This document shows positions 3,190-64,000 of a DNA stretch of 64,000 bases, one piece after another (position 1 is the stretch's first letter; each line of letters begins with the position of its first letter). Origin of the DNA: an uncultured Alphaproteobacteria bacterium. Its GTDB lineage: Bacteria > Pseudomonadota > Alphaproteobacteria > Rs-D84. The position numbers and the translations under genes were made by a program. The notes beneath the pieces are model-generated. The model worked only from the letters and a program-made list of their open reading frames with translations. It made no database searches and was not told the origin of the DNA. Where the stretch lies: assembly GCA_934232895.1 (NCBI GenBank), contig CAKQGH010000006.1, positions 138-64,137 on the forward strand, read 5' to 3'.

Positions 3190-3193
3190 GTTT

Positions 3194-27546: not shown

Positions 27547-27567
27547 AAACATAAAAGAGAGGAAGTC

Positions 27568-30500
27568 ATGACAAAGAAACGCGGTTTTCTGGGATTTTTT
27601 GCATATTTATTCGTTGCAATGTTTTTTGCAACTGGGGCATTCGCGGCCAGCGAATTGTACGAGGATTGTCCGGTGCCAGATGAAAATTCTGTTGCCGCAG
27701 GCTTTTGGAATAATGTTGCAGAGCCTAATTTCGGTGGCGAACCGTTGGGCTTTTCGGGCAGTGCCGCGGACGCTATTGGCGAGGGCTTTGAACCGTATGT
27801 TATAAACCCGCATCGTGTGGAGGTATCGGAAGAAACAGGCATTACAAATGGTGTTGGCAATTGTGTTGCGGTTATATGGTATATGTCCGACCATGGTATG
27901 TTTTATCGTTTTGTGCAATACAGCGAGAATGCAGAGTTATATGACCACGCCCCAACATTAGAACCATATTCCAAAATACCGTTCGGGTGGATTACGACCG
28001 CACCCGGGTATTATCTGGAAATGCCCATATATGGCGACTATTATGCAGAAGACGCTGAAATCAAAGATCCAATTTTTGCCGCTATTCCGTATCAAAGTTA
28101 TAATTACCAAAACTATAAGTATTATCCGTTCCGCACAAATACCCTGTGTACCCAGGGATCGTATTGTAATTCCGGTGTGACGGATCTGTGGGATTGGGAT
28201 GGCTATGCCACAGGCGAAGGCACATCCACCAAGGGAATTGAACAATGCGATGGCGGATGGCCATCTGCACCCGGTGCGACCGAATGTGATGAAAGTGGAA
28301 ATTATATCCAATTTGATTGTGTTGATAATCAAAATGGCAATGAAAGAAGTGGTGTCAATGTTGATTTTGCAAATGGATATTCGTTTAGTCGGATGCGCGA
28401 CGACAATGTGCACATGGTATGTGCGGCCGGTGGTTGGAACAATGAAAACGGCGATTTCAGTACCCCCGATGACATACAGTGTATTTTGATTGAACCGACA
28501 ACCAAAGAAGTCATAGACGCCAAAGGTCAGGGTTTGTGTAGCATAGATCGGTCCGGTGATTATGAAAATCATTATGTTATGGAGTGGAAGGGTTCTGATT
28601 TATACATAAAATGCCGATTGGCGACCGAAGAAGAAGATCTGAGCGACGGTTCCAGATTGCACGTGGGCGATGTAAGGTGCGAGTATTTTGATGAAAACAA
28701 CAGCGAATCCAAGGTTTACAAGTCGTATAATATTTCATACGATTTGAATGGCGGCACGGCGAATAATCCGGCCAATCCAAAGCGCGAGATATCGGCTGTC
28801 ATCAGCCATGATGCCACTGAATGGACGGTGTACTATGAACCAATCGGTGACCAAGAATGTTATGAACCGTTTTCATACGATTATGATTTGGGCAAGTGCG
28901 TTACGGGGCATGGTGGCGAATATGATTTGTGCAATGGTGCAAATGCCGAATGTGATCCATTTATTCCGTTGCTGGGCCCAAACGATGACGATAATAAACA
29001 GCTGACATTCCGTTGCTGGCACAATATGGCCGACACAAACAATCCCGAATCGTGCCTTTATGATGATTTGGATGTGGGGTCTGATGCCGCTCGTGGTGAA
29101 GAACAATACCCATTTTTGGAAAGGGTATTTGGAACATCGGGCTATATAAATGTTCGTGCGATATGGGACCAATATTCGTGGCTGTGCGAGGCCGGTACAT
29201 ATTACAAGGCGAATACTGGTGTTGATACATGTACGACATGTCCCGCGGGATCGTATTGCCCAGATGACAGACTTTACAGTACTGGCACAGTCGATGATGG
29301 TATTATCAAATGTTCCGCCGGCACAACCAGCGAGGCCGGTTCAAAATCTTGCACAGCAATTACTTACAAAGTGACCTTGGACAAGCAAAATGGTACCGGG
29401 GGTACGGATGCGTATTGGTATAAATATAATTCCAGCAAGACATGTTATTATTTTGCGGATGCAAATTTGACCAAATGTATTGACGGCAGCAATGGTCAAA
29501 ATATTACCATTCCAATCCGCACCGGATATACATTTGACGGGTATTATACCGGCACGAACGGTACTGGTACGCAATATGTGAATGCCAGTGGTTTGACAGT
29601 AAATAACCTGTATAAAACGACTGGCGACCGCACATTGTACGCCAAATGGAAACCCAATACCATCAAGGTGACATTGGATTCTGATGGTGCGACAAGTTCA
29701 GGCACCAAGGCGTATTGGTATCAGTATAACACAAACAACAAATGCTATTATTACTCGGATGCTGCGTTGACCACTTGTATGGGTGGCACAACAACAAACC
29801 AAAAAATAGATACATTACCAAGTAAAAATGGGTACGCGTTTGGTGGTTATTACACTGGTAAAAACGGAACTGGAAAACAGTATATCACCGCGTCCGGCTA
29901 TGCCACGGGCAGTATTGTTGATTCCGTATCATCGGATATAACATTGTATGCGAAATGGGACCTGGTGACATACACAATTGAATACAATGTAAACGGTGGA
30001 ACAATGCCGTCCAGCGGTGTTGTGACAGAATATACCGTTGAAACCGACAGTTTTGAACTGCCCCGGCCAACACACACCAAGGCAAGATTCTGGGGCTGGA
30101 GAAACAAAGCAGCATGGGGTGCGGTTGTTGCCGATAATGTTGTCAAAAAAGGCTCGTATGGGAATTTGGAATTGACCGCGGCATATAACATTGATTGCGA
30201 ACCTGGGAAATATTTTGATAAAACAACCAAGTCATGCGCCGAATGTCCATCTGGTGGCTTTTACTGCGAAGGCGGCAGTTTTGATTACAACGCCACCGAA
30301 AACAAGGGACTTGGCTTTTGCCCAGAACCAGAGGCATCGTTCTTTGAGGAACGCGTCAACGTCGTTGATGATGGCGAGAACATAACAGGCGGTCCGGACT
30401 TGGTGACCCAATGGATGCGTAAAAATTGGGGCGTGCCAGAATTTGAAATAGTGGAATACGCCGTCGAAGATTCTCGTTATGGATTAAGCAGTGTTAACCA

Positions 30501-33500
30501 GTGCCAATATGCATTGCTGTATGATGTCACAATGGCAAAATGGCAAGAAAACGGTTATAATGCAAAACCCCAATTGTTCGAAATATGGCAATATGATTCC
30601 GACGCTAATGAATATACCGCGGTTGTGCAATCTGGGTGGTTGTCGACCATTCCTGGGTATTATTTGAGGAACCCAATCAAGGGATCGTGCACAGACGAAG
30701 GTTTCCTAAGACCGCACTGGGGTAAACAGCCGTATACCGAATTGGAAATTTGCCCGGCGGGTTCATATTGCCCCGGGAACGATAGCAAAGACGAGGTTTA
30801 TGAACCTGAATGCGGCAGCCCCGATGACAGCGATATATTGACCGAATTTGGCCGCGTGACCTGCCCCCGTGGCGGCACTGTCGAGGGCGCAATCGGCGAA
30901 GACCAATGCGATGGCAGTTTTGATTACAGAATTTGTTTTTATGATGAAAACGCCGACGGCGGCATTGGTGGTATAGCGGGGTTTAACCCAGAAAAATGTA
31001 CCAATAAAATAATTGAAAGCTGTGACGAATGCACTGACACAGCAACAGATATTAGTGGCGCATGTGTTGTTGACAGCAGCGAAGGTGATTACACATTTGA
31101 TGATGAGGGGGGTAACGCTTACACAATCTGTTTGATTCATGATGAAAATAATCCCAATGGTGTTCCGGGATATAGGTACAATTGTGATATTGATGCCCAA
31201 CAGGAGGTCCATGGTCCGCGTTGTCAATATGATTTGATTACGTATACACTGACCTATAATGCAAACGGGGGTGCAATAACCGATTTGGCAAATGTGCCGA
31301 CAAAATATACCGTCATTGATTCTTTGCCAACCGTGCCCGATGCCACGCGTGATGGGTATGAATTACTGGGCTGGTTAACTGAAAGTGGCGACACATTGCA
31401 GCCCGGTGAACAATGGACGCCACTTGATTACATGGGTGATAATGCGGATGCCCAGGTTATCAGTCTGACGGCACAGTGGGAAGAATTGATTACATGTTTG
31501 CCAGGGCGCTATTTGCCGGCGGGCGAAACCGAGTGCAAAATATGCCCGGCGGGATATGGTTGCCCAACCGAAAATATGACATACCGCAAGAACGCAACAC
31601 AGGACCAGGGTAAAGCCCCATGTCAGTACACGACATACAGTGATGGCACAGATGGGTTCTGTAACACATGCGCAGAAGGTTCATTCAGCGAATACGATAT
31701 GGCAACCGCGTGCACACCCTGCGGGGCGGGCAGAACGAACAGCGGTGGCGGCATATGCAAGGGCTATTGCAGTAACAGCGACAACGTGGCGTCATGGAAA
31801 ACGCCAACATGGATGACTGGTAATTATGTGGACAATTATTGTGCAATCGCGTCATGTACCGAATTGTATGAATTGCAATCTGATGGGAAAAAGTGTATTG
31901 GACGCGTGTTCAAGGCCACATTGGATAACGATGGCGCCACAACCGCCGGTACCGCCGCATTCTGGTATCGGTATAAAACCAGCGGCGTGATGTACGCTGA
32001 TGCCGATCTGAAAACGCCACTGGGGGGGGTAAAATACAAGATTACCGTCCCGGTCAAAACGAACTATGTATTTGGTGGGTATTATACCCAGAAGAATGGT
32101 GCCGGAACCCAGGTTGTTGACGCCGAAGGTGTAATTGCTAACTATACGGCAAACACATTTGGTGCCGATACGACACTGTACGCACAATGGACGCCGGTGA
32201 CGGTGGATTGTGCGGCGGGGCAATATTTGCCAGCGGCCAAGGTCACATGCGCATCGTGCCCGGCGGGATCCCGTTGCCCAAATGCGGCGACATATTCGTT
32301 CTCGGAAACGGCGGACCAAGGCGCAATCAAATGCAACATAGGTACATTTGCAACCGGTGGCGCGAAATCGTGCACCACCTGTGCCGAAGGTTCAATTACC
32401 TCCAACAGCGGTTCCTATCGTTGTACTGCATGCACCAAGGGTAAAACCACGGCGGGGAATGTGCGTTCCGCATGCGACGCGACATGCCAGAATTCTGATA
32501 TAACCGTGTCATGGCTGGCGCCATCGTGGAATAACAATACCGTGACGAATCTGTGTGCGGCGGCGACATGTAAATCTGGTGCCGTGTTGGCAAATAACGG
32601 GTGCTATCATTTGGTGCGTGTGACATTGGATGCCCAGGGCGGCCGCGCCGGCATACCCGCGTTCTATTATGCGTACCAGAATTATTATGATGGCAGCTAT
32701 TACAAGGATGAAAAACTGACCACCGAGGTCGCGCCGGGTGATTATATCCCGTCGCGCACCGGATATGAATTCGGTGGATATTGGACCGAGAAAAATGGCG
32801 GCGGGCACGAGGCCATTCAATCGTTTGGTGACATAGACCAAGATTTGTACAAGGATGAAAGTGAAAACTTCACATTGTATGCCAAATGGACGGCCAAGGA
32901 AATCACCTGTGCGGCGGGGCAGTATTTGCCGGCGGGTGTCGAGGATTGCAAACCGTGCACCGCGGGTAATTCGTGCGCCGGGGGTACATTTACATTCTCG
33001 GCCACGGCGGACCAAGGACAGACACCGTGTGCCGCGGGCCGTTTCAGCGGCGCGGGCGCGAAAGTATGCACCGCGTGTGGCATCGGATCATACACAAACG
33101 AAACCGGCGCAACGGCGTGCGTGCCATGTCAAAATGGCAAAACCACATCTGGGACCGGGCGCACATCTTGCGACGCATCGTGCGATATGGAACATGTGGC
33201 GGGATGGGCTACGGCCGAATGGTTTACGAATAATACCACCAGCACATGCGTACCAGAGGCGTGCAACGATGGATATTTTGTTTCGCCAGACACATTGGAA
33301 TGTGCCGAAAACAGTTTTGTGGCAAATTTTGATATTGGTAATGGCGGATGGGAATTGTTGAGCGGCGGTCAACCAGACAAATACATTGCTAACCTGAAAT
33401 ACGGCGAAATGGTGCCGGATTTGTGGATGGACACAATGCCAAAATTGGATGGATACCTGTTCATGGGATTCTTTACCGAACCAGAGGGCCAAGGCGATAT

Positions 33501-37752: not shown

Positions 37753-37769
37753 TGCCGCATCGCAAATAC

Positions 37770-47390: not shown

Positions 47391-47399
47391 GTGGTGGAT

Positions 47400-48440: not shown

Positions 48441-48509
48441 TAATTTATTGACCGGGGATTATTTTTCCAAAAAGCGTAAAAAAGTTGCGTTGTATATACA
48501 CAAAAAGTC

Positions 48510-48539
48510 TTGCGATGGGTGGTGCATTTTTTCTATGAT
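48510..48539 (+). promoter_or_regulatory. Promoter candidate of giant gene 3 (TTGCGA-18 nt-TATGAT), homologous to 27517-27546
   Basis: Same conserved block as upstream of giant 1, with a T6 tract in the spacer (48527-48532). The in-frame ATG at 48535 lies inside this -10 element. Confidence 0.35.
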
Positions 48540-48573
48540 TACACCACAAAGGTCAGGAAAAGAGAATAAAGAA

Positions 48574-51500: not shown

Positions 51501-54500
51501 GTATGTGTATTTTTATGATGATGTAGCGGCTGGTGCGTGTAGCGGGTTTGTTGGTGTGTACTCTTTGGAATACGGAAATACAGCATCTGGTATTAATCAG
51601 CCGGATGGCTGTGAGTGGTATGATGACGATGGGTATTCAGTCATGCCAAAGGGTGATGCGCCAAATGGATACAGATTTGCCGGATGGTATACCGGCGAAA
51701 ACGGTACAGGAATTCAATTGACCGACGAAAACGGCCGAATCCTGGACAACGTATTTACTACCGATTTTGGCGACGACGGTGCGGAAATTGCTGCATACGC
51801 TAAATTTGTCCCCAATGTCACGCCGACATTTACCGTCACGGTAAAAACGACCGAGGCAAATACCGCGTTTTCGTTCAAACTGGCCGCAACCGGTACTTTC
51901 TATGTTGATTGGGGCGATGGCAGTGCCATGGAAACCATAACCAGAACGAACACCACACAAACCACATATTCACACACCTTTGCCACCGCCGGCACATATA
52001 CGGTTGGTTTTGCCGGCCGCGCAACCGGGTATGTCACACAACCCACATTGTCGGACAGTGCTTGTACATCGAATGCTGGAACTTCGGCCTGTGGCAATTC
52101 AATTCCGGCGTTTACATTACAGGGGATGGGTAAATACATATATGGCATGTCGGGTTCAATTGGGTCTATATTCCCAACATTGGCCAGTGGTGCCCAGCCC
52201 GGATTCCGTTTTGCATTCAGCAGTATCCAGGCAACATCAATTCCAGAAAATCTGTTCAGTGGTATTACTGGAACACCCACGGCGTGTATGTTCAATGATA
52301 CATTTTATGGTGCGAAAATTACATCGATTCCGGAAAATTTATTCCATGGTATCACCGGCACAGCCCCCGGGTTGTTCAGTGGTACATTCTGGGGGACGAA
52401 AATTACATCAATTCCGGCGGGGTTGTTTTCGACCATTACCGGAACACTGCAACCATATATGTTCGAGGCAACATTTATTGATACAACCGCAGTGACATCG
52501 GTGCCGGCGGGGCTGTTTGGTGGCGTGACCGGCGCGCCCGCCAGATGCGCATTCAAAGATACGTTCAGATCTGCCGAGGGCGTGACGGCGTTGCCCGCCA
52601 ATTTGTTCCCGAATTTAAGTGGTAAACCCGGGTACTATTCATTGAAAAATATGTTCGCGTTGGCCAGCAACCTGGCGGGCTATGTGCCGCAGACAATGTT
52701 TTCAAACCTGGACAGCACCGGTTACAGCGCGGGCCCAATGGACAGTATATTTGTCGATACCAAATTGGAAACAACATGCCCGGCGGGAAAATATCAATAC
52801 CTGACCGGATTCGAGGACGATTGGGAAAGTGGTATTGTGTGCAGTGACTGTGCCCAGACACCATATACCGATTCCGGTACCGACACCGAGACAATTACCA
52901 ACGGTTCGCGTTCACGCACAAAAACACGCAGTTGCTATAAAACCAGTGTTGCCGGCAACAAGGGCGGCATTGCGGCGTGCGATGCATCGACATCGTGTGG
53001 TGCGTATACGTACGGCGATTGGACATATACTTGCAATACCGGGTATCATTTGTCTGGCACAACATGCGTCGCAAATACGTATACGATAAAATACCAGTCC
53101 GGTGTAAATGGTGCCACTGTCTTAGGTACAATGCCAGATACAACCTGTACATACGATCAAGATTGCAAATTGGCGCCCAATGGATTTTCAATACATGAGA
53201 AATGGAAATTTATTGGTTGGTCCCGACAGATCTTGGCCGATGCGGAGTACGCAAATGGTGCCACTGTAAGGAATTTGACTAGCCGTAATGGTGGTACGGT
53301 ATATCTGTATGGCATATGGGAAGATTGTCCCGCGTGTAATGCGACTAATGCGAATTGCACCTTGACCGCGCCACTGGGTGTGTGCACATACACCACATCG
53401 TGCAAGACTGGTTACGGCAATATTCAAAACAACGGCGCGTACAATGCATCGTGCAGCGCCAGCACATACACCATTACATTGCGCGACTATGCGGACGCAA
53501 ATACGCACAGCACCATATACCAGGTCTATGGCAGTAAATATTACAGCGACACATCAACCGAAACCGCCATTACCAAGGCCACGGTGCCAACGCGCAGTGG
53601 GTACAAATTCCGCGGGTTCTATACCGTAAAGCAATCTGATTTGACCGGCAACGGCGGCAGTGGCACGCGCCGCATTACATCGGATGGTACCCTGCCTGGA
53701 AATACCACATTTACGGCCAGCACAAAACTGTATGCCGCATGGGCCCAGGATTGCACAACCCCGTCAAATGGTACCTGCAGTTTGACAATAAATACCGATG
53801 GCACCGCGACGTATACCGCGTCGTGTAACAGTGGGTACACTGTGTCGGGTGCAACCACCGCAACACCGTCATGCACCGCGAACACGTATACCGTCACATA
53901 CGCCGCAAATGGTGGCACGGGTTCGAACCAGACACAGTCTGTGACATATAAATCGTCGTTCACGACCAAGGCGTCAAGTACATTTACCCGCAGCGGTTAT
54001 ACATTCGCCGGATGGGGTGGTAATTATCCAAAATCGAACACGGCATACACATATACCACCACGGGCAACACAACGCTGAACGCCCAGTGGTGCCAGAACT
54101 GCGCATCGGTATCGAACGGCTCGTGCACATTGACCGTGAATGAAGCCACCGGTGCCTGCACATACACCACATCGTGCAATGCCGGATACACCATCAGCAA
54201 CAACGGTAAATACAACCCGACCTGCACCGCAAATACGTATACTGTTTCGTTCAATGCCAATGGCGGTTCCGGGGGCCAAAGCACATCGGTGACCGCAACA
54301 TACGGCGCGGCCATGCCGGCAATAAGCACCACCGCCCCAACCCGTACCGGATATACATTCGGTGGGTGGTATGACACCAGTGCGGCAACTGGCGGCACAC
54401 AGTACTATACCGCGGCGGGCGCATCGGCACGCAGTTGGAACAAAACCGCAAACACAACGTTGTATGCGCGGTGGACGGTTAAATCAATAAAATGTGCGGC

Positions 54501-57500
54501 TGGTAAATATTTACCGGCCGGCAAAGACGCATGCGCAACTTGCGTTGCGGGTTATGCTTGCGCGGGAGGCACATGGACATACGATGGTGACGAACATGGT
54601 CGCACCCAATGCACGGGTGCAACATACGCGGGTGCGGGCGCGACGCAGTGCACATCGTGCCCATCGCCATACACATACGACGTATCGGCCGGTAAGACCA
54701 AGATTGAACAATGCACGGTTCAGACCACGGCTGGGTCGTATATCAAAGATGCCAAGGGTGACAAAGTCTCATGCCCGACGGGATATTATTGCCCTAGCGC
54801 AGTAGTTGCATACGGTTCGACAAATTCGCCAACCGCGTGTCCGGCAATTGCGTCGCACACACCGACAACATGGCAATCAAATTATTATAACCCAACACCT
54901 GTATCCAGTGAGTTTACTAGTGCTGGTGGCGAAAGCATCGATCGTTGTGCGGTCACATATACACTGAAAAATGATCGTGGTACAATATCAACACTGAAGA
55001 TGTATAATCCAGAAACTGACAAGTATGATTATGGATGGCAAAATGATTATTACATGTTGTATATATCGTTAAATCCTGGCTATTACTTTACCAAAAAGTG
55101 GTCGGTTACTTTGAGTGATGGCGAACATACAATGTGCGATGAGTCCGCGGACAATCCAAAAATATACGTTGATGCCGCGCCATGTCCAGCGGGGTCGTAT
55201 TGCCCTGGTTATGTTGATAGTCTGGATATGAATGGCGGCACCCACCCAGATAGTTGGCCAAAATGCTCTGATGGTGAATATACTGACACCATGGGAATAT
55301 ATGCGTGCCCAACCACATATCCGAACAGTGCGGCAAAATCGAGTGCAATTGAACAGTGCTGGTTGACCACAACGGCGGGCAAATATGTTGCGACCGCACG
55401 CGCAGATCAGGTTCAGTGTTTGGCGAACAATTACTGTGCCGGCGGTACAACCGTGAACTATGGTTCAACCGGTGGTATGCAATCGTGTGCCACGGGGTAC
55501 GAAAGCGCAGCGGGCGCGTCCAGTTGCACGGCAACGACATACAGCATTACATATAACCTGAACGGTGGAACGAATGCTGCGGGCGCAAAAACATCGTATA
55601 CGATTGAAACGGCGGATTATACCCTGCCCACGCCGACCAAGACGGGATATACATTTGGTGGGTGGTATGAAAATTCTGGTTTAACTGGCAGTGCCGTGAC
55701 CAAAATAGCCAAGGGTTCAACGGGCAACAAAACATACTGGGCAAAATGGACCATCAAATCTGTGAACTGTGCGGCGGGTAAATATCTGCCGGCGAACAGC
55801 CTGACGTGCGGTGACTGTACGGCTGGGTACGCCTGTGCGGGTGGCACATATTCATACAGTTCCAGTACCCAGGGGCGCAGTGCCTGTACCGGTCGCACAA
55901 AGTACAGCGCGGCGGGCGCGGCATCGTGCAACACCGTCAGCAGCGGTTATTACACCACGGGCTGCAACAGCAGCAACAATAACTGCACCGGTCAAACACA
56001 ATGCACGGGTACAACATATTGCAGTGGTGGTGTTAAAAGCGACTGTCCGTCCGGATATACCGCAAACACGACCGCCGGCAAGACCGCCGCATCACAATGC
56101 ACAATCAGCGTTCCGGCTGGTAAGTACCTGGGCACCGCCAATGGTACAACCACCACGAGTTGCGCGGCGGGTACATACAAGGCCGCCCACACCGTAAACT
56201 ACGGCAGCACATCATCGTGCGGTGCCTGTACCGGTCGCACAAAGTACAGCGCATCGGGTGCGGCATCATGCAGCACCGTCAGCAGTGGTTATTACACCAC
56301 GGGCTGCAACACCAGTGGCAATAACTGTACCGGCCAATCCCAGTGTGACGGCGGTGTGTATTGCACCGGTGGTATTCAAAACGACTGTCCAACGGCAGAG
56401 ACAGGTTGGACCCAGGGTACTGGCAAGGGATGGAGTGCGGTGACAAGCTGCTTTGAAACCAAGGCCGCGACAAGCGTCAGCACATATTGCAGCGCTGGCC
56501 AATTAAAGAAAAATGCGACCAGCAGCACCGCATGGGGCACCAGCACCATCAGCACCGCATTACAGGCGAAAGCGGGTTCTTTTGTCAGTGGTCAGACATG
56601 TACGCAATGCACCGGTGCATCGTACAGCGCGGGTGGCACGGCGACCAGTTGTACATCGTGTCCGTCGGGTTATGCGGCGAACACCGATAATGGTAAAACT
56701 GCCGCAACACAGTGTGAAATTAGCATTGCCGCTGGTAAATACTTGGGTACGGCCAAGGGAGCAACCACAACCAGCTGTGCCGCCGGTACATACAAGGCCG
56801 CCCACAATGTCAGCTATGGCAGTACTTCATCATGCAGTGCATGTTCCGGTCGCACAAAGTACAGTGCGGCGGGCGCGGCATCGTGCAGCAATGTCGGCAG
56901 TGGTTATTACACAACTGGATGTGACACCAGCGGCAATAAATGTACCGGTCAAAAACAATGCACAAGTGGCACATGGTGCGCGGCCGGCGTAATGAACCAG
57001 TGCAGTTCGTTGGCTGGTGTATCGTCTGCGGGTGGTGTGTACAGTTCGGCGGTGGGCTCAACCGCAAACACGGCATGTAAATATACCGCACCAACCCAAA
57101 TCATAACCGGGTGTCTGAGTGTCATATCAAATACCGTGACATATACCGGTTCGGCGTGGCCCAAAACAACATACGAAGCCGATGCGGCCGCGGGATACAT
57201 TGTTGCCAACAATAACACGGCAGGCGCGACATGTACGCAATGCACCGGTGCAACATACAGTGCGGGCGGCCGTGCAACATCATGCACGGCGTGCCCGACG
57301 GGCTATACGGCGAATACCGATAATGGTAAATCCGCTGCGAGCCAGTGCACAATCAGCGTGACCGGTGGACATTATATTGGCACCGCGGGCCAAAACAGCA
57401 CCAATTGGGGTACTTGCGCGGCCGGTTCGTACAAGGCGGCCCACACCGTAAACTATGGCAGTACTTCTTCGTGCAGTGCCTGTACCGGACGCACAAAGTA

Positions 57501-60500
57501 CAGTGCATCGGGCGCGGCATCATGCAGCACGGTTTCAACCGGGTACTATACAACGGGTTGCAACACCAGCAATAATAACTGTACCGGTCAAAAACAATGC
57601 ACAAGTGGCACATGGTGCGCATCGGGTGTAATGAACCAGTGCAGCAGTCTGTCCGGTGTATCGGTTTCTGGTGGTACATATAGTTCGGCGGCGGGTTCAA
57701 CTGCGAACACGGCATGCAAATATACCGGACCGTCCAAGACACTGAGTGGGTGCAAAACGGTGACGACGAATACGGTGACCTATACTGGTACGGCATGGCC
57801 TGCAACGACCTATTCCGTGACGGCGAATGGTGGATATATTATAAGCAATAATAACCAAGCCGCCGCGGCGTGCACACAGTGCAGTGGTGCGGTATACAGC
57901 GCGGGCGGTACCGCAACATCATGTGCGGCGTGCCCATCTGCGGAATCTGGATGGACCCAGGGTACCGGCAAGGGATGGAGTGCGGTGACAAGCTGCTTTG
58001 AAACCAAGGCCGCAACCAGTGCCAGCACATATTGCAGCGCTGGTCAGTTAAAGAAAAATGCGACGAGCGCGACCGCGTGGGGCAACAGCACAATCAGCAC
58101 GGCATTACAGGCGAAACCAGGTTCAATCGTCAGCGGTCAAACCTGTACACAATGCAGTGGTGCAAAGTACAGCGCGGGTGGCACAGCAACCAGTTGCGCA
58201 TCATGTCCGGCGGCAACCAGTGGTTGGACACTTGGTACCGGTACCGGATGGAGTGCGGTGACGAGTTGCTATCAGACCAAGGCGGCAACCAGTGTCAGCA
58301 CATATTGCGCCGCGGGCCAGTTAAAACAAAACGCAACAAGCGCGACCGCATGGGGCAACAGTACCATCAGCACCGCATTGACCGCGAAACCTGGCGCAAT
58401 CGTCAGTGGTCAGACATGTACACAGTGCACAGGAACATCGTACAGTGCGGGCGGTACAGCAACATTATGTGAATTATGCCCGGATGGATATACAAACGAC
58501 ATCGGCAATGGCAAGACATCTGCCAGCCAGTGTGCAATCAGTGTCGACGGTGGGCACTATATTGGCACCGCGGGTCAAGACAGCACCAATTGGGGAACAT
58601 GCGCGGCGGGTACATACAAAGATATACATCTGGTGTACTATGGTAGTACATCATCGTGCAGTGCCTGCACCGGTCGCACAAAGTACAGCGCGTCGGGCGC
58701 ATCGGCATGCAGCACGGTTTCAAATGGATACTATACAACGGGTTGCAACACCAGCAATAATAACTGTACCGGTCAATCGCAATGCACAAGTGGCACATGG
58801 TGCGCATCGGGCGTGATGAATCAGTGCAGCAGTCTGACGGGTGTATCGGTTTCGGGGGGTACATATAGTTCGGCGGCGGGCTCTACCGCGAACACGGCGT
58901 GTAAGTATACCGGACCATCCAAGACACTGAGTGGATGCAAAACGGTGACGACGAATACCGTGACCTATACTGGTACGGCATGGCCAGCAACGACCTATTC
59001 CGTGACGGCAAATGGTGGATATATTATAAGCAATAATAACCAAGCCGCCGCGGCGTGCACACAGTGTGGCACCGGGAAATATAGCGCAGGTGGTACGGCT
59101 ACATCGTGTTCTTCTTGTCCGACGGCCGATTCTGGGTGGACCGCGACAGCGCCCGCCGGCAGCACATCGTACAGCGCATGCTATGAATACCAGACGCCGG
59201 CCAATTGCGCCAGTGGTTCGGTAAAGCGCACGGCAACCAGCGCGACCGCGTACGGCACCACCATTGCATTATTGAATAAATTGTCATCCAAGGCCGGGTA
59301 CTATGCATCAGCAACCGCAACATCATGCACAATTTGCCCAACAGGATCGTCCTGTGCGGCGGGGGCAACCGCTCCGATGGTGTGTGCAAATTGGACATAC
59401 GCGCCGAAGACCGGAATGTCGTCATGCACGGCGTGCCCGGCATTGACAACAGGATGGTCGAAATTTGACAGCAGTTCAGATGGCTGGAAATCGCACACCA
59501 TGTGCATCCAGGTCAGCCCGACCCCAGACAGTTGCAGCGCGGGTAATTTGAAACAGGTTGCATCGGCCGATGGCGCAACGACATGGGGCACTTCGTCGGT
59601 GAACACCGCGTTAAAGGCCACGGCTGGGAACTATGTCGCCGGCACATCTTGCACATCGTGCCGCGGTCTGGGTGGTGGGTTCTATCCAAACAGTGATGCC
59701 GATAATGCCGGTGGTGCGTCGGCATGCTATACGAATTCAATCAGCGGCGGATATGTTGCGTCGGCCACGGACCACCAAGCAACCGATTGTGCCGCCGGAA
59801 CATACAAAGGTGCACATACGGTTCACTTTGGCAGCACATCATCATGTGATTCCTGTATGGGACGCACGAAATACAGTGCGGCGGGTGCGTCGGCGTGCAG
59901 CACGGTTTCAACCGGGTACTATACAACCGGCTGTGACACCAGCAGCAATAAATGTACCGGCCAATCCCAATGCGATGGCAGTGTATACTGCACGGGCGGC
60001 GTTCAGAAAAATTGCCCGGCGGCGGAATCCAAATGGACGCTGGGCACCGGCAAGGGATGGAGTGCGATAACAAGTTGCTTTGAAACCATCCAGGTTGCAG
60101 ATGAAGTGCAATATTGCAGTGCCGGTCAATTAAAGAAAAACGCTACAACCGATGGTGCATGGCCAACAGTTGCAACAACCAGTGTTGCCATCCAGGCGAA
60201 ACCAGGTTCTGTTGTGGTCGGTCAATCTTGCGCACAGTGCAGTGGTGCATCATACAGCGCGGGCGGAACGGCGACACAATGTTCGTCTTGTCCGACGGCG
60301 ACCAGTGGTTGGACACGGAATACCGGCACCGGATGGAGCAAGGTTGAACAATGCAACCAGACCAAGACGGTTGGCGGGAACTGCGCCGCGGGTCAATTAA
60401 AACAAAATGCAACCAGCGCGACCGCATGGGGCGCCAGCACAATCAGCATTGCACTGTCGGCAAAACCGGGCGCATTTGTGAATGGTCAAACATGCAGCCA

Positions 60501-63500
60501 ATGCAACGGTGCGTTGTACAGCGCGGGTGGTACGGTGACATCGTGTTCTTCGTGCCCGACGGCCACCAGTGGTTGGACCATCAGCAGCGGTATTGGATGG
60601 ACCAAGGTTGAACAGTGCAACCAGACAAAGACTGTTGGCGGGTATTGCAGTGCGGGTGCACTGATTCAGAATGCAACCAGCTCGACCACATGGGGGACCA
60701 GTGAAATTCTGACAGAATTACAGGCGAAACCGGGCTCAATTGTCAGTGGTCAGACCTGTACACAGTGCAGTGGCGCAAAGTACAGCGCGGGTGGTACGGC
60801 AACCAGTTGCGCATCATGTCCGGCGGCAACCAGTGGATGGACACTTGGTACCGGTACCGGATGGAGTGCGGTGACGAGTTGCTATCAGACCAAGGCGGCA
60901 ACAAGTGTCAGCGCATATTGCGCCGCGGGCCAGTTAAAACAAAATGCAACCAGCGCGACAGCCTGGGGTACCAGCACCATCAGCACCGCATTGACCGCCA
61001 AGGCCGGTGCAATTGTGGATGGTCAGACATGTACACAGTGCAGTGGTGCAACATATTCTGGGGGTGGCGTGGTGACGCAATGCAGTGTATGCCCAACTGG
61101 ATACGATGCGAATATTGTCAATGGCAAAACAGCGGCATCACAGTGCCAGATAAAATGTTCTGCAAAGACAGTGGTCAGCATTGTCAACGGTTCATGTACT
61201 GCATTGACCACGGGCGGATATTACAAGGGTGAACACCTGGTGAACTATGGTTCAACAAGTTCGGCGGAACAATGTCCGGCGGGCTATCGTGATGGTGCGG
61301 TTGGCGCGGCGATAACCGATTGTGCAAAATCGGTTGCAGGTGGTAATTATGTGCGGACCGCAAAGGACGAAAACGCCAGCACTTGCGTGGCGGGAACATA
61401 TCGGACGGCGCACACGGTTACATACGGCAACACATCGTCATGCAGTGCCTGTAACGGTCGCACAAAGTACAGCGCGGCGGGCGCGGCATCGTGCAGCAAT
61501 GTTTCAACTGGGTACTATACAACCGGATGCAACACCAACAACAATAATTGTACCGGTCAATCCCAGTGCGATGGCAGTGTATATTGCACCGGCGGTATTC
61601 TGAATAATTGCCCAACGGCCGAGACTGGTTGGACCCAGGGTACCGGCAAGGGATGGAGCGTGGTGACAAGTTGTTTTGAAACCAAGGCGGCGACCAGCGT
61701 CAGCACATATTGCGCATCGGGCGTATTAAAGAAAAATGCGACCAGCGGCACCGCATGGGGCACCAGCACCATCAGCACCGCATTGACCGCCAAGGCCGGC
61801 GCAATTGTGGATGGTCAAACATGCACACAATGCAGTGGCGCATCGTACAGCGCCGGCGGCACGGCAACACTGTGTGAATTATGCCCGGCCGGGTACGAGG
61901 CAAACATTGGCAACGGTAAAACCGCGGCAACCCAATGTGAAATCAGTGTTGATGGTGGCCATTATATTGGTGCGGCGGGTCAAAACAGTACTAATTGGGG
62001 CACATGCGTCGCCGGTACATTCAAGGCAAACCATTTCGTGCGCTATGGCAATACATCATCGTGCGATGCATGTACAAGTCGCACAAAATACAGCGCAGCG
62101 GGCGCATCGGCGTGCAGCACCGTCAGCGGTGGTTATTACACCACGGGTTGCACGGGTGAAGACAAATGTACCGGTCAGGCGCAGTGCACAAGTGGCACAT
62201 GGTGCGCATCGGGCGTGATGAATCAGTGCAGCAGCCTGTCCGGTGTATCGGTTTCGGGTGGTTCGTATAGTTCGGCGACGGGATCAACCGCGAATACTGC
62301 ATGTAAGTATACCGGTCCATTACAGATAATTGATGGTTGTTCCTATGTCACGCCGAATACTGTGACATATACGGGTACAACATGGCCAGAATCAACATAT
62401 ATGGTTGATGCAATGCCTGGGTGGTATGTGGTTGGCGACAACACAGCCGATGCGACTTGCAAACAGTGCAGTGGTGCAGTATACAGCGCGGGTGGCAAGG
62501 CAACATCGTGTGCGTCATGCCCGTCGGCGACCAGTGGTTGGACACGGAACACCGGCACCGGATGGAGCAAGGTTGAACAATGCAATCAAACCAAAACGGT
62601 CGGCGGATATTGCAGTGCGGGTGAATTAAAACAAAATGCAACGAGCGCGACCGCGTGGGGCACCAGCACCATCAGCGTTCCATTACAGGCCAAGGCGGGT
62701 TCCATTGTCAGCGGCCAAACATGTGCCCAGTGCAGTGGCGCAAAATACAGCGCGGGTGGCACCGTGACCAGTTGTACCGCATGCCCAACGGCGGATACCG
62801 GTTGGACATTGGGTACGGGCACCGGATGGACATCGTACAGTGCGTGCTATGAATATCAAACACCGACTAATTGTGCCAGTGGTTCGGTCAAACGCGTGGC
62901 ATCGGATGCGTCGGCGTACAGTGCAACCATTACATTGCGCAACACATTGTCATCCAAGGCCGGATACTATGCATCCACAACCGCAACATCGTGCACAATT
63001 TGTCCAAAGGGTTCGTCTTGCGCGGCGGGCGCGGTAAATCCAACGGCATGTGCGAATTGGACCTTTGCCGATAAAACGGGAATGTCGTCATGCACATCGT
63101 GCCCAAGCGTCACAAGTGGATGGAGCAAATCCAACACGACCGGCACCGGGTGGACATCGTACAGCCAGTGTCAGCAAACAACGGGCACGCCGGAACACTG
63201 TGTGTCGGGCGGACTGAAACAAACCGCAACCAGCAGCACCACATGGGGCGCCAGCACCGTGAATGTGGCCCTGTCGGCGGATGCGGGATATTATGTAAAT
63301 GGCACCGCGTGTTCAATTTGCACTGGGGCAACATACTCGGGTGGTGGCACATTGACCAAGTGTGACGAATGCCCAACCATTTACACGCACAATACAACAG
63401 ATGGCAAAATCCATATTGATCAATGCCAGGCAAAAACAACCGCGGGTAAATACATCAAAACGGAAAATGATGATATGGAAACGGTTTGCGCGGCTGGTGG

Positions 63501-64000
63501 ATATTGTGCGGGTGGCACAATCGTGAACTGGGGTGGTACTGGTGGACGCACATTATGCACGGCGGGCACATACAACCCGAACACTGGGTCAAGCCTGGCC
63601 ACGGCATGTGTTAAATCAGACGCCGGATATTATGTTGGCACCAATGGTGCAACCGCACAAACGGCATGCACGGGCGCAACATATACCGACACGACTGGCG
63701 CCACCAAATGCACCACATGCCCAACGGCAACCAAGTACGCAGATGCATTAGCACAGTATTCGTATTACAATACTGGCACAATTGGTGACCACACGACCAA
63801 GACCAAATGCCAGGCGGTGTTTAATTCCACAATTGATCATGGAACATTGGTAAATGATGCGTGCTATTTGGGTTCGGACGATGATTACGGTACCAGCACC
63901 AGCAGCGGCGCATCGACATGCTGGTTGTTAAAGGATGGTCTGAGCTGTGATGGTGGGTATTATAATAAATCACAGTACGCGGCAACTCGTGCGACGGTAT
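48574..64000 (+). CDS. Giant secreted Cys-rich mosaic protein 3, 3'-truncated by the window (>5,140 aa): Flg_new repeats, CxxC repeats, VDWGDG domain plus LRR-like repeats, long array of novel Cys-rich modules
   Basis: It is not in the ORF track because it has no stop inside the window. After 48535, every plus-strand track ORF lies in one of the other two frames. I translated the remaining frame without stops at 48535-48700, 51781-52800, 55801-56760 and 63523-64000. GTG 48574 follows GGAAAAGAG (alternative ATG 48535). Signal peptide (M)GILSRNLRFLGAIFVMVFGALFGALPARA. By homology with giant 2 the stop is expected ~317 nt beyond the window. Confidence 0.85.
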   Translation, partial: MGILSRNLRFLGAIFVMVFGALFGALPARAVYIEYEDCTNGSVCTETALDQNVALTFPLPNGNWASPGWAVFSKEIKPASVCFDNGDYGGAIELYTSQIGTVWVYLQCNESTGYYDTVFSHTQADGNQNSELSSGWGYLSVGPGYYATRGNIFLIDPYVGKWLDYYGDVETCDGMCGDGVIVVRDVQKCPAGYYCPGAGPFVQLLYNDENIYGRIKCPDGTYSEPGATSVNDCVPYEQADDGAKQYLATCEYTYDNMDAKISCREGLVRDCWCKLAEDDTSQAVLNDCSADVQEDGNGNRYCVVNYVDIADSTYRAYCRPSTREEDGRSEDDTLNSEIIYCEARLSSKSGATKYYVKYDLNGGIWQNSDTTGVTNYIDDGSGSCSDEDRVYLGEPYRADCTFDYWIDANRDDDEPFNGTTDPEKNQYFCPGDFQGVSVRAKWSCEPGLTKAVRECAAGEYLPAGQDDCVVCPPDGSGVYCPGGVFGAIGDGGYTEDQGRFECAIGSYEDDGNLGDTGGVKQCTACDGGYTTPKAGAPNHYSCDTCDNNTSGVSSWATPVWNSNNYVNNLCQISSCHTGYKSVTGDGVDGRCSIITYSITYNLNGGKNPSGTRTSYNVKSSTYTLPTPTKSGYTFGGWYTNSGLTGNAVTTIAAGSIGNKTFYAKWTANGITCAAGKYLPANSTTCTTCPAGSYCPGGTWSQSSSAQGLNTCPSFGDVNSNFDSLVAGDNSCMVDGGFAPDVTGITSKSGCVYDATCGTKASWVERRGFSSASATSYDKLIGTYYFDVPAGYGYYMSGPTTKCLNTLGSGPKTSGVGYSTLTKCETGYYCPGGNSYANSAVTCGGTNNPQIIGRTQCPTGYTSAAGATSASACTAATYKVTLDKQSGTGGTSEYYYQYNTKGTCYYYTTSALSTCTDSSDGQNITKPTRTGYDFKGYYTGTDGTGTQYVNASGLAINNLYKTAGNRTLYANWSPKTWYVYFYDDVAAGACSGFVGVYSLEYGNTASGINQPDGCEWYDDDGYSVMPKGDAPNGYRFAGWYTGENGTGIQLTDENGRILDNVFTTDFGDDGAEIAAYAKFVPNVTPTFTVTVKTTEANTAFSFKLAATGTFYVDWGDGSAMETITRTNTTQTTYSHTFATAGTYTVGFAGRATGYVTQPTLSDSACTSNAGTSACGNSIPAFTLQGMGKYIYGMSGSIGSIFPTLASGAQPGFRFAFSSIQATSIPENLFSGITGTPTACMFNDTFYGAKITSIPENLFHGITGTAPGLFSGTFWGTKITSIPAGLFSTITGTLQPYMFEATFIDTTAVTSVPAGLFGGVTGAPARCAFKDTFRSAEGVTALPANLFPNLSGKPGYYSLKNMFALASNLAGYVPQTMFSNLDSTGYSAGPMDSIFVDTKLETTCPAGKYQYLTGFEDDWESGIVCSDCAQTPYTDSGTDTETITNGSRSRTKTRSCYKTSVAGNKGGIAACDASTSCGAYTYGDWTYTCNTGYHLSGTTCVANTYTIKYQSGVNGATVLGTMPDTTCTYDQDCKLAPNGFSIHEKWKFIGWSRQILADAEYANGATVRNLTSRNGGTVYLYGIWEDCPACNATNANCTLTAPLGVCTYTTSCKTGYGNIQNNGAYNASCSASTYTITLRDYADANTHSTIYQVYGSKYYSDTSTETAITKATVPTRSGYKFRGFYTVKQSDLTGNGGSGTRRITSDGTLPGNTTFTASTKLYAAWAQDCTTPSNGTCSLTINTDGTATYTASCNSGYTVSGATTATPSCTANTYTVTYAANGGTGSNQTQSVTYKSSFTTKASSTFTRSGYTFAGWGGNYPKSNTAYTYTTTGNTTLNAQWCQNCASVSNGSCTLTVNEATGACTYTTSCNAGYTISNNGKYNPTCTANTYTVSFNANGGSGGQSTSVTATYGAAMPAISTTAPTRTGYTFGGWYDTSAATGGTQYYTAAGASARSWNKTANTTLYARWTVKSIKCAAGKYLPAGKDACATCVAGYACAGGTWTYDGDEHGRTQCTGATYAGAGATQCTSCPSPYTYDVSAGKTKIEQCTVQTTAGSYIKDAKGDKVSCPTGYYCPSAVVAYGSTNSPTACPAIASHTPTTWQSNYYNPTPVSSEFTSAGGESIDRCAVTYTLKNDRGTISTLKMYNPETDKYDYGWQNDYYMLYISLNPGYYFTKKWSVTLSDGEHTMCDESADNPKIYVDAAPCPAGSYCPGYVDSLDMNGGTHPDSWPKCSDGEYTDTMGIYACPTTYPNSAAKSSAIEQCWLTTTAGKYVATARADQVQCLANNYCAGGTTVNYGSTGGMQSCATGYESAAGASSCTATTYSITYNLNGGTNAAGAKTSYTIETADYTLPTPTKTGYTFGGWYENSGLTGSAVTKIAKGSTGNKTYWAKWTIKSVNCAAGKYLPANSLTCGDCTAGYACAGGTYSYSSSTQGRSACTGRTKYSAAGAASCNTVSSGYYTTGCNSSNNNCTGQTQCTGTTYCSGGVKSDCPSGYTANTTAGKTAASQCTISVPAGKYLGTANGTTTTSCAAGTYKAAHTVNYGSTSSCGACTGRTKYSASGAASCSTVSSGYYTTGCNTSGNNCTGQSQCDGGVYCTGGIQNDCPTAETGWTQGTGKGWSAVTSCFETKAATSVSTYCSAGQLKKNATSSTAWGTSTISTALQAKAGSFVSGQTCTQCTGASYSAGGTATSCTSCPSGYAANTDNGKTAATQCEISIAAGKYLGTAKGATTTSCAAGTYKAAHNVSYGSTSSCSACSGRTKYSAAGAASCSNVGSGYYTTGCDTSGNKCTGQKQCTSGTWCAAGVMNQCSSLAGVSSAGGVYSSAVGSTANTACKYTAPTQIITGCLSVISNTVTYTGSAWPKTTYEADAAAGYIVANNNTAGATCTQCTGATYSAGGRATSCTACPTGYTANTDNGKSAASQCTISVTGGHYIGTAGQNSTNWGTCAAGSYKAAHTVNYGSTSSCSACTGRTKYSASGAASCSTVSTGYYTTGCNTSNNNCTGQKQCTSGTWCASGVMNQCSSLSGVSVSGGTYSSAAGSTANTACKYTGPSKTLSGCKTVTTNTVTYTGTAWPATTYSVTANGGYIISNNNQAAAACTQCSGAVYSAGGTATSCAACPSAESGWTQGTGKGWSAVTSCFETKAATSASTYCSAGQLKKNATSATAWGNSTISTALQAKPGSIVSGQTCTQCSGAKYSAGGTATSCASCPAATSGWTLGTGTGWSAVTSCYQTKAATSVSTYCAAGQLKQNATSATAWGNSTISTALTAKPGAIVSGQTCTQCTGTSYSAGGTATLCELCPDGYTNDIGNGKTSASQCAISVDGGHYIGTAGQDSTNWGTCAAGTYKDIHLVYYGSTSSCSACTGRTKYSASGASACSTVSNGYYTTGCNTSNNNCTGQSQCTSGTWCASGVMNQCSSLTGVSVSGGTYSSAAGSTANTACKYTGPSKTLSGCKTVTTNTVTYTGTAWPATTYSVTANGGYIISNNNQAAAACTQCGTGKYSAGGTATSCSSCPTADSGWTATAPAGSTSYSACYEYQTPANCASGSVKRTATSATAYGTTIALLNKLSSKAGYYASATATSCTICPTGSSCAAGATAPMVCANWTYAPKTGMSSCTACPALTTGWSKFDSSSDGWKSHTMCIQVSPTPDSCSAGNLKQVASADGATTWGTSSVNTALKATAGNYVAGTSCTSCRGLGGGFYPNSDADNAGGASACYTNSISGGYVASATDHQATDCAAGTYKGAHTVHFGSTSSCDSCMGRTKYSAAGASACSTVSTGYYTTGCDTSSNKCTGQSQCDGSVYCTGGVQKNCPAAESKWTLGTGKGWSAITSCFETIQVADEVQYCSAGQLKKNATTDGAWPTVATTSVAIQAKPGSVVVGQSCAQCSGASYSAGGTATQCSSCPTATSGWTRNTGTGWSKVEQCNQTKTVGGNCAAGQLKQNATSATAWGASTISIALSAKPGAFVNGQTCSQCNGALYSAGGTVTSCSSCPTATSGWTISSGIGWTKVEQCNQTKTVGGYCSAGALIQNATSSTTWGTSEILTELQAKPGSIVSGQTCTQCSGAKYSAGGTATSCASCPAATSGWTLGTGTGWSAVTSCYQTKAATSVSAYCAAGQLKQNATSATAWGTSTISTALTAKAGAIVDGQTCTQCSGATYSGGGVVTQCSVCPTGYDANIVNGKTAASQCQIKCSAKTVVSIVNGSCTALTTGGYYKGEHLVNYGSTSSAEQCPAGYRDGAVGAAITDCAKSVAGGNYVRTAKDENASTCVAGTYRTAHTVTYGNTSSCSACNGRTKYSAAGAASCSNVSTGYYTTGCNTNNNNCTGQSQCDGSVYCTGGILNNCPTAETGWTQGTGKGWSVVTSCFETKAATSVSTYCASGVLKKNATSGTAWGTSTISTALTAKAGAIVDGQTCTQCSGASYSAGGTATLCELCPAGYEANIGNGKTAATQCEISVDGGHYIGAAGQNSTNWGTCVAGTFKANHFVRYGNTSSCDACTSRTKYSAAGASACSTVSGGYYTTGCTGEDKCTGQAQCTSGTWCASGVMNQCSSLSGVSVSGGSYSSATGSTANTACKYTGPLQIIDGCSYVTPNTVTYTGTTWPESTYMVDAMPGWYVVGDNTADATCKQCSGAVYSAGGKATSCASCPSATSGWTRNTGTGWSKVEQCNQTKTVGGYCSAGELKQNATSATAWGTSTISVPLQAKAGSIVSGQTCAQCSGAKYSAGGTVTSCTACPTADTGWTLGTGTGWTSYSACYEYQTPTNCASGSVKRVASDASAYSATITLRNTLSSKAGYYASTTATSCTICPKGSSCAAGAVNPTACANWTFADKTGMSSCTSCPSVTSGWSKSNTTGTGWTSYSQCQQTTGTPEHCVSGGLKQTATSSTTWGASTVNVALSADAGYYVNGTACSICTGATYSGGGTLTKCDECPTIYTHNTTDGKIHIDQCQAKTTAGKYIKTENDDMETVCAAGGYCAGGTIVNWGGTGGRTLCTAGTYNPNTGSSLATACVKSDAGYYVGTNGATAQTACTGATYTDTTGATKCTTCPTATKYADALAQYSYYNTGTIGDHTTKTKCQAVFNSTIDHGTLVNDACYLGSDDDYGTSTSSGASTCWLLKDGLSCDGGYYNKSQYAATRATV
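52204..52752 (+). repeat. Five to six tandem 26-32-aa LRR-like repeats inside giant 3 (F..TF.g.kITSIPenLF.GiTG...)
   Basis: Direct translation gives FRFAFSSIQATSIPENLFSGITGTPTACM / FNDTFYGAKITSIPENLFHGITGTAPGL / FSGTFWGTKITSIPAGLFSTITGTLQPYM / FEATFIDTTAVTSVPAGLFGGVTGAPARCA / FKDTFRSAEGVTALPANLFPNLSGKP... Confidence 0.7.
56395..63330 (+). repeat. Array of ~13 copies of a ~85-aa Cys-rich module (SGWT.GTG.GWS...C..TK...YC.AG.LK.NATS.T.WG...GQTC.QC.G..YSAGG...SC..CP), interleaved with CTGRTKYSA.GA.SC and other CxxC units
   Basis: Module landmarks (K/Q-N-A-T codons or variants) lie near 56509, 58061, 58332, 59233, 59565, 60135, 60403, 60668, 60942, 61733, 62632, 62890 and 63215. I translated one copy fully (56395-56650). 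Confidence 0.7.
63523..64000 (+). repeat. Near-identical copy of the giant-2 C-terminal region (46239-46716)
   Basis: Constant offset of 17,284 nt with only a handful of mismatches in 478 nt. Out-of-frame track ORFs 46249-46467 and 63533-63751 differ at 2 of 72 residues. Confidence 0.9.

Follow-up and report, generated by a model that had tools for sequence, protein, structure and literature searches.

Giant modular surface proteins are already known from bacteria, and several described systems resemble three giant genes, here called A, B and C, on a 64,000-nt stretch of DNA (the window) from an uncultured alphaproteobacterium of the order Rs-D84 (GCA_934232895.1, contig CAKQGH010000006.1, positions 138-64,137). 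What is new at this locus is a pair of C-terminal domains; the type of module is unusual. The source organism is a human-gut relative of Candidatus Enterousia, which is placed in the same order, has genomes of 0.75-1.0 Mb, lacks a tricarboxylic acid cycle and a respiratory chain, misses glycolytic steps, and is probably partner-dependent (PMC12306168). Rs-D84 and Enterousia bacteria occur widely in the guts of humans and animals, and none has ever been cultured; published genome analyses suggest dependence on partner cells, and attachment machinery has so far not been described for these bacteria. An earlier note on this stretch called the bacterium host-associated, which agrees with its relatives: human and animal gut metagenome-assembled genomes (MAGs) titled Candidatus Enterousia or Alphaproteobacteria.

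Surface proteins with the Flg_new repeat include the internalin B-repeat region, giant proteins of gut Clostridia, and adhesin-like proteins of Methanomassiliicoccales. They carry the same repeat of ~65-70 aa as A, B and C, likewise occur in gut-associated organisms, and are presumed to function in adhesion. In the published literature on genomes, Flg_new repeats of gut archaea count as adhesion factors, and such repeats are also recorded from giant proteins of gut Clostridia. At the present locus, by contrast, the repeats are a minority and stand singly or in pairs among cysteine-rich modules, the organism is a diderm alphaproteobacterium, and the leucine-rich repeat, LPXTG, GW and dockerin context is absent.

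The cysteine-rich domains of Eph and TNF receptors (TNFR) and of ELAPOR1 (PF07699, formerly GCC2_GCC3; PF23091) share with these modules a C-x2-C...G.Y...C-x2-C hairpin pattern. Unlike those receptors, the giants are bacterial, are 10-40x longer, have no transmembrane or kinase part, and have homologues in one bacterial lineage only.

The variant-specific surface proteins (VSPs) of Giardia and the immobilisation antigens of ciliates are also cysteine-rich, periodic, threonine-rich, secreted CXXC proteins of gut-lumen organisms, encoded by variable multigene families, and a protease-resistant coat is plausible both for them and for the proteins described here. The cysteine content of Giardia VSPs is about 12%, above the 5-6% of A, B and C, which also lack the C-terminal transmembrane-CRGKA anchor, number only three genes at the locus and show no sign of switching. 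The likeness to Giardia and ciliate coats drawn in the earlier note is therefore one of analogy, since no protein matches PF03302.

Cargo of the type IX secretion system (T9SS) in Bacteroidota follows the same logic of a Sec signal, a highly variable passenger, and a small conserved beta-rich C-terminus (~80 aa in T9SS) common to many proteins of a genome or lineage. This too is analogy only: B, tail included, matches neither TIGR04183 nor Por_Secre_tail in NCBIfam and Pfam searches, and to our knowledge there is no T9SS in Alphaproteobacteria. The giants of reduced-genome episymbionts and predators (CPR/Patescibacteria, Omnitrophota and DPANN), which together with the T9SS cargo architecture offer the nearest functional parallels, show the same pattern of a very small genome with several percent of its coding capacity in a few giant, repetitive, secreted proteins, and are thought to mediate cell-cell contact. 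They are built from beta-helix, dockerin or Rhs elements, whereas A, B and C consist of disulfide-rich TNFR/Eph-like modules with new C-terminal domains.

A, B and C are real, intact genes under purifying selection, and the two previously undescribed C-terminal domains in which they end define, as judged from sequence searches, a sizeable, unannotated, lineage-restricted family. These domains are referred to as the type-1 tail (B and C) and the type-2 module (A). All three proteins share the order of signal peptide, unique head of ~350-450 aa, long mosaic, and conserved C-terminal domain. The three plus-strand open reading frames (ORFs) lie where the earlier note placed them, in an interval covering 56.9% of the window, and their features are as follows.

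27568..37752, plus strand: gene A, 3,394 aa, with signal peptide, unique head, cysteine-rich/Flg_new mosaic and type-2 C-terminal module
27568..27645, plus strand: signal peptide of A, MTKKRGFLGFFAYLFVAMFFATGAFA↓AS, with n-h-c pattern and conforming to the AXA rule
27646..28722, plus strand: unique head of A (residues 27-385), no Pfam match
28726..36306, plus strand: mosaic of A, 11 Flg_new-like units (7 by Pfam) between cysteine-rich modules
33037..33168, plus strand: strongest Ephrin_rec_like (PF07699) match in A, 32.1 bits (cut-off 23.1), at residues 1824-1867
36469-36591, plus strand: second Ephrin_rec_like match in A, 27.4 bits
36715..37749, plus strand: type-2 C-terminal module of A, cysteine-rich, ~340 aa, ending ...CADGYRMW before the stop codon
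37770..37793, plus strand: terminator-like hairpin after A, a 9-bp stem with 6 GC pairs, then a T-run
37902..47033, plus strand: gene B, 3,043 aa, with signal peptide, unique head, mosaic and type-1 C-terminal tail
37902-37991, plus strand: signal peptide of B, with an AFA↓G-type site pattern
ending about 39320, plus strand: unique head of B, matching neither the A nor the C head, no Pfam match
46239..46716, plus strand: 478-nt tract of B with 99.2% identity to C 63523-64000
46554..47030, plus strand: type-1 tail of B, read from alignments as CDGGYYNK..AC..VGAGYW..LTR..C..GLTTIGYGAGADEAGDCGR.L..G...YLRS..KTTPSLNV...YYGN...RV..G.TTYSVYDDSMQ before the stop codon
48574..64000, plus strand: gene C, continuing past the window, with 5,142 codons inside it counted from GTG 48574
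48574..48663, plus strand: signal peptide of C, (M)GILSRNLRFLGAIFVMVFGALFGALPARA↓VY
50359..55734, plus strand: Flg_new region of C, holding 8 of the 9 units found by a local profile (4 by Pfam)
55741..63999, plus strand: cysteine-rich array of C, residues 2390-5142, in modules of ~75-120 aa with 6-10 Cys per 100 aa
63523..64000, plus strand: start of the stretch that C has in common with the 3' end of B; the window ends before the tail proper and a ~107-aa extension

Several observations establish that the genes are intact. Three public assemblies, produced with two different assemblers, agree without a mismatch over 29,132 bp around B, and protein B is identical in all three; one assembly derives from a Hadza gut sample, and because the samples may be related the independence of the three is partial. 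A sister species represented by a Hadza MAG (CAKQNS01) has orthologues of A and C. Its counterpart of A has an open frame of at least 3,052 codons and is collinear with A over the first ~1,790 aa, with 66-86% identity and a ratio of nonsynonymous to synonymous substitution (dN/dS, omega) of 0.20-0.38. Between C and its orthologue (L004), dN/dS is 0.15 over the last 789 collinear codons, with 57 of 57 cysteines conserved. The earlier note had allowed that the ORFs might prove to be assembly chimeras or carry stops; the mismatch-free 29,132 bp and the intact orthologues under purifying selection speak against both. Outside the collinear regions of the A and C orthologues, the repeats are rearranged, and the genes evolve through module duplication, rearrangement and gene conversion. 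The 478-nt tract shared by B and C has 4 mismatches and a sharp left boundary, and looks like a recent gene conversion.

Genes A and B both have good ribosome-binding sites, that of A being GAGAGGAAG upstream of its ATG, whereas the ribosome-binding site of C is unclear. C starts at ATG 48535 or GTG 48574 in a frame open from 48427 to the end of the window. Its full length is ~5,354-5,382 aa, and gene calls in other assemblies give 5,367 and 5,382 aa. Its stop had been predicted ~317 nt past the window; it is placed instead at about +638 nt, because of these gene calls and of an orthologue (L004) with a ~107-aa extension beyond the B-like tail, from which the extension of C itself is deduced. 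The Sec-type signal peptides proposed for all three proteins were likewise recognised, by eye from sequence pattern, as a basic n-region followed by a hydrophobic core and a cleavage site, which reads AFA↓A, AFA↓G or ARA↓V. That of C resembles the usual MSRFLRF... signal peptides of the family.

The description of the three giants as paralogues needs qualification: although B and C share a tail, A is no simple paralogue of either, since each protein has an N-terminal ~450 aa of its own and the C-terminal module of A differs. The head of A is 83% identical to that of its orthologue in CAKQNS01, 22% identical to the head of C, and does not match B; the head of C, like the others, has no Pfam match. 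At E<=5, Pfam returned nothing for the three heads, the tail, the post-tail extension or the P0094 extension.

The ~70-aa repeat is the Flg_new repeat (PF09479/TIGR02543) in all three proteins, as first proposed. Pfam scores are 202 bits in 7 stretches for A, 326 bits in 8 for B, and 184 bits in 4 for C against a cut-off of 27 (8.9e-61, 1.9e-99 and 6.2e-55), and the TIGR02543 scores of A and B are 109 and 214 bits. The count of more than 30 copies was too high: Pfam finds 19, and a profile trained on the window finds 30 (11 in A, 10 in B, 9 in C), three of them weak fragments. The mosaic of B thus holds 10 Flg_new-like units, 8 of them by Pfam.

Between these units lie cysteine-rich modules of ~75-120 aa, roughly 9 in A, 13 in B and 34 in C by a generic internal profile. 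Cysteine makes up 5.0% of A, 4.7% of B and 5.9% of C and reaches 10 per 100 aa in local stretches only, so the figure of one residue in ten does not hold for the whole proteins. Nor do these residues fall mostly in C-x2-C spacings, which are the commonest in C alone (51 of 304 gaps) and account for 19 gaps in A and 11 in B. The cited unit CAAG.YLPA..C..C.AGY.C.GG does exist, three times in B and twice in C. Residues 2390-5142 of C form a nearly pure array of cysteine-rich modules whose internal DNA repeats are 66-88% identical, and this array includes ~91-aa units beginning CTQCSGA.YSAGGTATSC..CP. As a side observation, an N-A-T-S sequon, ...LK[KQ]NATS.TAWG..., is conserved in the ~91-aa modules of C (residues ~2600-4900, window ~56400-63300) and could be a glycosylation site.

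Likeness of these modules to ephrin-receptor and TNFR domains is supported in part. PF07699 exceeds its gathering score in A and does not in B or C, where one module of C reaches 14 bits against the cut-off of 23.1; relatives in the database carry precomputed matches to PF07699, PF23091 (ELAPOR1 TNFR-like) and PF07562 (NCD3G). An AlphaFold2 model of a 405-aa block of C has a mean predicted local distance difference test score (pLDDT) of 73.8, with the first ~220 residues near or above 90. Its best Foldseek matches in the PDB are the cysteine-rich domains of EphB6, EphA2 and EphA4, with 4-1BB, CD40 and DcR3 (E at least 0.066) and OX40 also among the top matches; these are consistent with the likeness and are not significant. 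Sequence searches of the PDB with A and the cysteine-rich half of C gave no meaningful match; one match, a nanobody, was set aside as chance. The whole proteins do not match the Giardia VSP (PF03302), Furin-like (PF00757) or TNFR_c6 (PF00020) families at E<=0.01, and the 405-aa block of C does not do so at E<=5, so the resemblances suggested for them do not amount to membership. The term TNFR/Eph-like disulfide ladder is supported as the description of a fold class, the support from Foldseek being weak. A weak galactose-binding-like match in a 4,739-aa relative lies under the Pfam cut-off.

The type-1 tail is a domain of ~100-140 aa that ends B and is common to the C orthologue L004 and several Enterousia genomes. 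It is defined by GLTTIGYG.GADE..DCGR.L..G...YLRS.KKTTPSLNV ... TYSV.DD at or close to the C-terminus of proteins that begin with a Sec signal peptide and carry cysteine-rich modules ahead of the tail. B has all of these features, C belongs through its 99% identical lead-in and its orthologue L004, and A does not belong. Searching with a tail profile gave 159 proteins in an indexed database, and among 1.84 billion representatives such a profile matched 649 clusters, with E<=1e-30 for 190; the proteins range from ~100 to 6,644 aa, and the tail is usually at the extreme C-terminus. In ~68 of 77 ORFs the tail motif lies 61-86 aa from the stop, and complete small members of 320-450 aa with signal peptides also carry it. 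Because the passengers are variable, the C-terminus is the invariant part.

Every relative of the C-terminal region comes from a gut MAG whose title reads Candidatus Enterousia or Alphaproteobacteria bacterium. A degenerate DNA pattern of the motif occurs in 90 stretches of GTDB species genomes, essentially all from gut alphaproteobacterial, Enterousia or Rickettsiales-labelled MAGs of humans, ruminants, horses and chickens. Two matches (L033 and L072) lie on short contigs of Bacteroidota-assigned MAGs labelled Muribaculaceae and Bacteroides fragilis; mis-binned Enterousia-like DNA is a more probable source of them than true occurrence. The type-2 module of A has 29 database homologues with 43-57% identity. 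Thirteen of these homologues, when aligned, show 62 invariant columns, of which Cys fills 26, and 12 of the 13 share the same final W; in other genomes the type-2 genes are at a different locus. We found no published description of these proteins in Rs-D84 or Enterousia.

An AlphaFold2 model of the last 199 aa of B (pLDDT 93.2, predicted template-modelling score 0.87) shows a cysteine-rich stalk followed by three short beta-hairpins. Foldseek against the PDB gave no match to the tail model with E below 0.19. Against BFVD, the best matches are uncharacterised gut-phage proteins (probability 0.99, root-mean-square deviation ~3 A over ~66 columns, E 0.19). Among the matches to the tail and module models there is no T9SS C-terminal domain, autotransporter, C1q/TNF or lectin fold.

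The reading favoured here, with somewhat more confidence than doubt, is that A, B and C are functional Sec-exported, cysteine-stabilised, elongated surface proteins, probably attachment fibres or a coat. The surface coat or adhesin proposed in the earlier note fits all the evidence, and it keeps the standing of a prediction. The signal peptide, recognised as a sequence pattern, would carry the chain through SecYEG. Dozens of TNFR/Eph-like modules would then fold into a disulfide-laddered, protease-resistant stalk, of which the fold is predicted and the disulfides are presumed. The Flg_new units and unique heads may serve as binding surfaces for a partner or host, as such domains do elsewhere. 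The type-1 domain of B and C and the type-2 domain of A may keep the protein at the envelope or act as a recognition signal for crossing the outer membrane; that they are terminal and conserved points to an anchoring or sorting role. A cell-proximal C-terminus is suggested by the parallel with surface-protein systems whose invariant end contacts the cell. These genes together span ~35 kb, which in a genome of 0.75-1.0 Mb amounts to roughly 3.5-4.7%. This share of a small genome, purifying selection, and membership in an unannotated family of at least 649 clusters make A, B and C obvious candidates for the contact apparatus.

The earlier note had also called export and anchoring unexplained. 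That still holds for any known anchor, and the problem is narrowed by the finding that all three proteins end in conserved, lineage-specific C-terminal domains. Pfam and NCBIfam searches and inspection of the termini agree with its statement that there is no autotransporter, RTX, LPXTG or lipobox signal, and the same holds for T9SS-tail families. The autotransporter and trimeric autotransporter domains PF03797 and PF03895 (the YadA anchor) are not matched in either database. Adhesins of the type I secretion system in the RTX/BAP class (LapA, SiiE) differ in that A, B and C have Sec signals and no HemolysinCabind match, and no transporter genes lie beside the locus. The C-termini ...CADGYRMW and ...YSVYDDSMQ do not form an LPXTG signal, and no Cys stands at +1 of the signal cleavage sites as in a lipoprotein.

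Several observations weigh against this reading. In the model, the tail is small and hydrophilic, a beta domain of six strands with 4-9 residues each and no membrane barrel. About 8 of 77 ORFs extend past the tail, with the motif 117-714 residues from the stop, and extra domains after the tail in this subset make for a weaker fit to a terminal sorting signal. Many family members also share a mature N-terminus, AGY[TS]CP.YKKYTSC, so conservation alone cannot tell which end faces the cell. Structural likeness to Eph/TNFR domains is below significance. When all neighbouring ORFs of 80 tail-bearing loci were clustered, no outer-membrane translocator was linked to the tail, and only housekeeping neighbours recurred (secA at 34 of 80, then dnaE). 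The adjacency to secA appears to be conserved synteny and is no proof of a functional link. A candidate partner at L006 2702-7867, a 1,722-aa cysteine-poor ORF directly upstream of a tail-bearing gene, has an end like that of outer-membrane proteins (...HNIKVSGSYRF) and no Pfam match, and was not used. Finally, respiratory chains are reported absent from the lineage, yet hundreds of cysteines would need oxidising; in an anaerobe said to lack such chains, cysteine oxidation becomes a concrete question.

Reversed polarity is an unlikely alternative, in which the C-terminal tail (with its extension in C) would be a distal ligand-binding tip, an arrangement likened to phage fibres, and the N-terminal part would attach the protein to the cell. 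It draws on the conserved mature N-terminus of many family members, on members with an extra post-tail domain that is beta-strand-rich by eye, and on the gut-phage proteins that are the best BFVD matches of the tail (E 0.19). However, the heads of A, B and C are unique and sit behind cleavable-looking signal peptides, which would make them a poor common anchor, and a ligand tip should vary under host or partner pressure, whereas the tail is the most conserved part of the family.

Release of the proteins as an extracellular matrix, a mucus-like mesh or soluble decoys, with the tail acting only as a folding, oligomerisation or secretion-recognition module, is about equally improbable. The hydrophilic tail, the abundance of Thr, Ser and Gly, and the failure to find a recognisable membrane anchor would all suit released proteins. 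Genomes below 1 Mb, however, rarely devote ~4% of their DNA to freely released proteins, and fibre-like modular giants bearing Flg_new repeats are usually cell-associated.

A quite improbable alternative is host-receptor mimicry, in which TNFR/Eph-type modules derived from eukaryotes by horizontal transfer would bind ephrins or TNF-family cytokines. The above-threshold PF07699 match in A, the PF23091 and PF07562 records of relatives, and the Eph and TNFR cysteine-rich domains returned by Foldseek are what such an origin would lead one to expect, but the fold matches have E of at least 0.066, no PDB sequence match to Eph, TNFR or another cysteine-rich protein was obtained, and all detectable homologues fall within the same bacterial lineage. 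Simple disulfide-ladder hairpins also readily converge, and a host range of chickens, ruminants and humans, with Rs-D84 MAGs reported from termite guts, argues against one specific vertebrate ligand.

The view that the ORFs are a repeat assembly artefact or decaying pseudogenes is scarcely credible: the DNA is highly repetitive (internal repeats 66-99% identical) and contigs of related MAGs often break inside these genes, but the perhaps not fully independent assemblies agree without a mismatch, ORFs of 3,000-5,000 codons contain no stop codon, and orthologues are intact, with dN/dS of 0.15-0.38 and all cysteines conserved.

Surface display of A, B and C by way of a cell-proximal C-terminus invites a bolder and doubtful extension, in which the C-terminal domains would mark an unrecognised, lineage-specific sorting or anchoring system that displays giant, disulfide-laddered fibres resembling animal receptors, for attaching to and exploiting a partner cell, and the chromosomal slot of the genes would be a fast-evolving specificity locus. 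If so, the partner might be another microbe, a gut protist or the epithelium. A bacterial lineage here appears to build giants mainly from TNFR/Eph-type disulfide modules, a design usually deemed eukaryotic. The conserved tail also offers a handle for finding family members, raising antibodies, and pulling down an envelope partner.

The slot lies between tolQRA and secA and is a hypervariable hot spot for length change. The flanking gene order is kept as argS, histidine kinase, response regulator, hydrolase, ruvB, tolQ, tolR, tolA-like gene, slot, secA, dnaE and rsmH. At 34 of 80 genome loci the gene immediately upstream of secA bears the tail. In one other species the slot holds a single 444-aa protein with a type-1 tail, complete examples upstream of secA in other species span 498-1,520 aa, and those cut short exceed 2,094 aa; the slot has expanded to three giants both in the window organism and in its sister species. 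The cluster is not strictly the tandem first described, since the gene for RNase P RNA lies between B and C on the opposite strand.

47037-47062: strong hairpin, downstream of both B and rnpB
47063-47389, minus strand: RNase P RNA gene rnpB, between B and C (Rfam RF00010, 179 bits)

The hairpin probably terminates both B and rnpB. Two non-coding spacers are unusually long (1.2-1.5 kb), at 26014-27567 upstream of A and 47390-48573 upstream of C; in the sister MAG, merely ~500 nt precede the A orthologue. The spacers are packed with dispersed palindromic units, for example CCCACAAAATTTCCAATTTTGTGGG and GGGGTGGCACGAAGTGCCGGGGTGGT, which resemble miniature inverted-repeat transposable elements (MITE) or repetitive extragenic palindromes (REP) and recur in the window at 227-1039 and 11110-11443. 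An invertible promoter with phase variation was considered, as the spacers do hold large imperfect inverted repeats. These are read as MITE/REP-like rather than as invertons because palindromes of the same kind also occur, dispersed, in other parts of the window and the arms are just 76-84% complementary. ORFs at 26492-27508 (minus strand) and 47358-47870 (plus strand) overlie repeat elements and are probably no genes; the latter also overlaps the end of rnpB by ~30 nt.

Between tolR and the tolA-like gene, at 24847-25230 (plus strand), lies a gene for a 127-aa 23S rRNA intervening-sequence/bAvd-like protein (PF05635, 103 bits). It is also present in the sister MAG (L115 6256-6639) and absent from the syntenic locus L019. 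A diversity-generating retroelement was considered and rejected: the Avd-like gene lies upstream, but no reverse transcriptase was seen nearby, and the tract shared by B and C is without adenine-specific mismatches.

Elsewhere, gcrA, which the earlier note had placed in the window, is found at 6277-6897. A prepilin peptidase (Peptidase_A24, region 5730-6710, minus strand) adjoins three ORFs of 301, 419 and 554 aa (region 1525-5304, minus strand), whose N-termini look like signal peptides and which have no counterpart in Pfam; nowhere does the window show a pilin-type leader motif. In a relative, close to its A-type giant gene, L112 16173-21467 encodes NeuB, a CMP-sugar transferase (CTP_transf_3) and Glyco_transf_29, the animal-type sialyltransferase family, a cluster that hints at sialylated, host-like surface glycans in the lineage.

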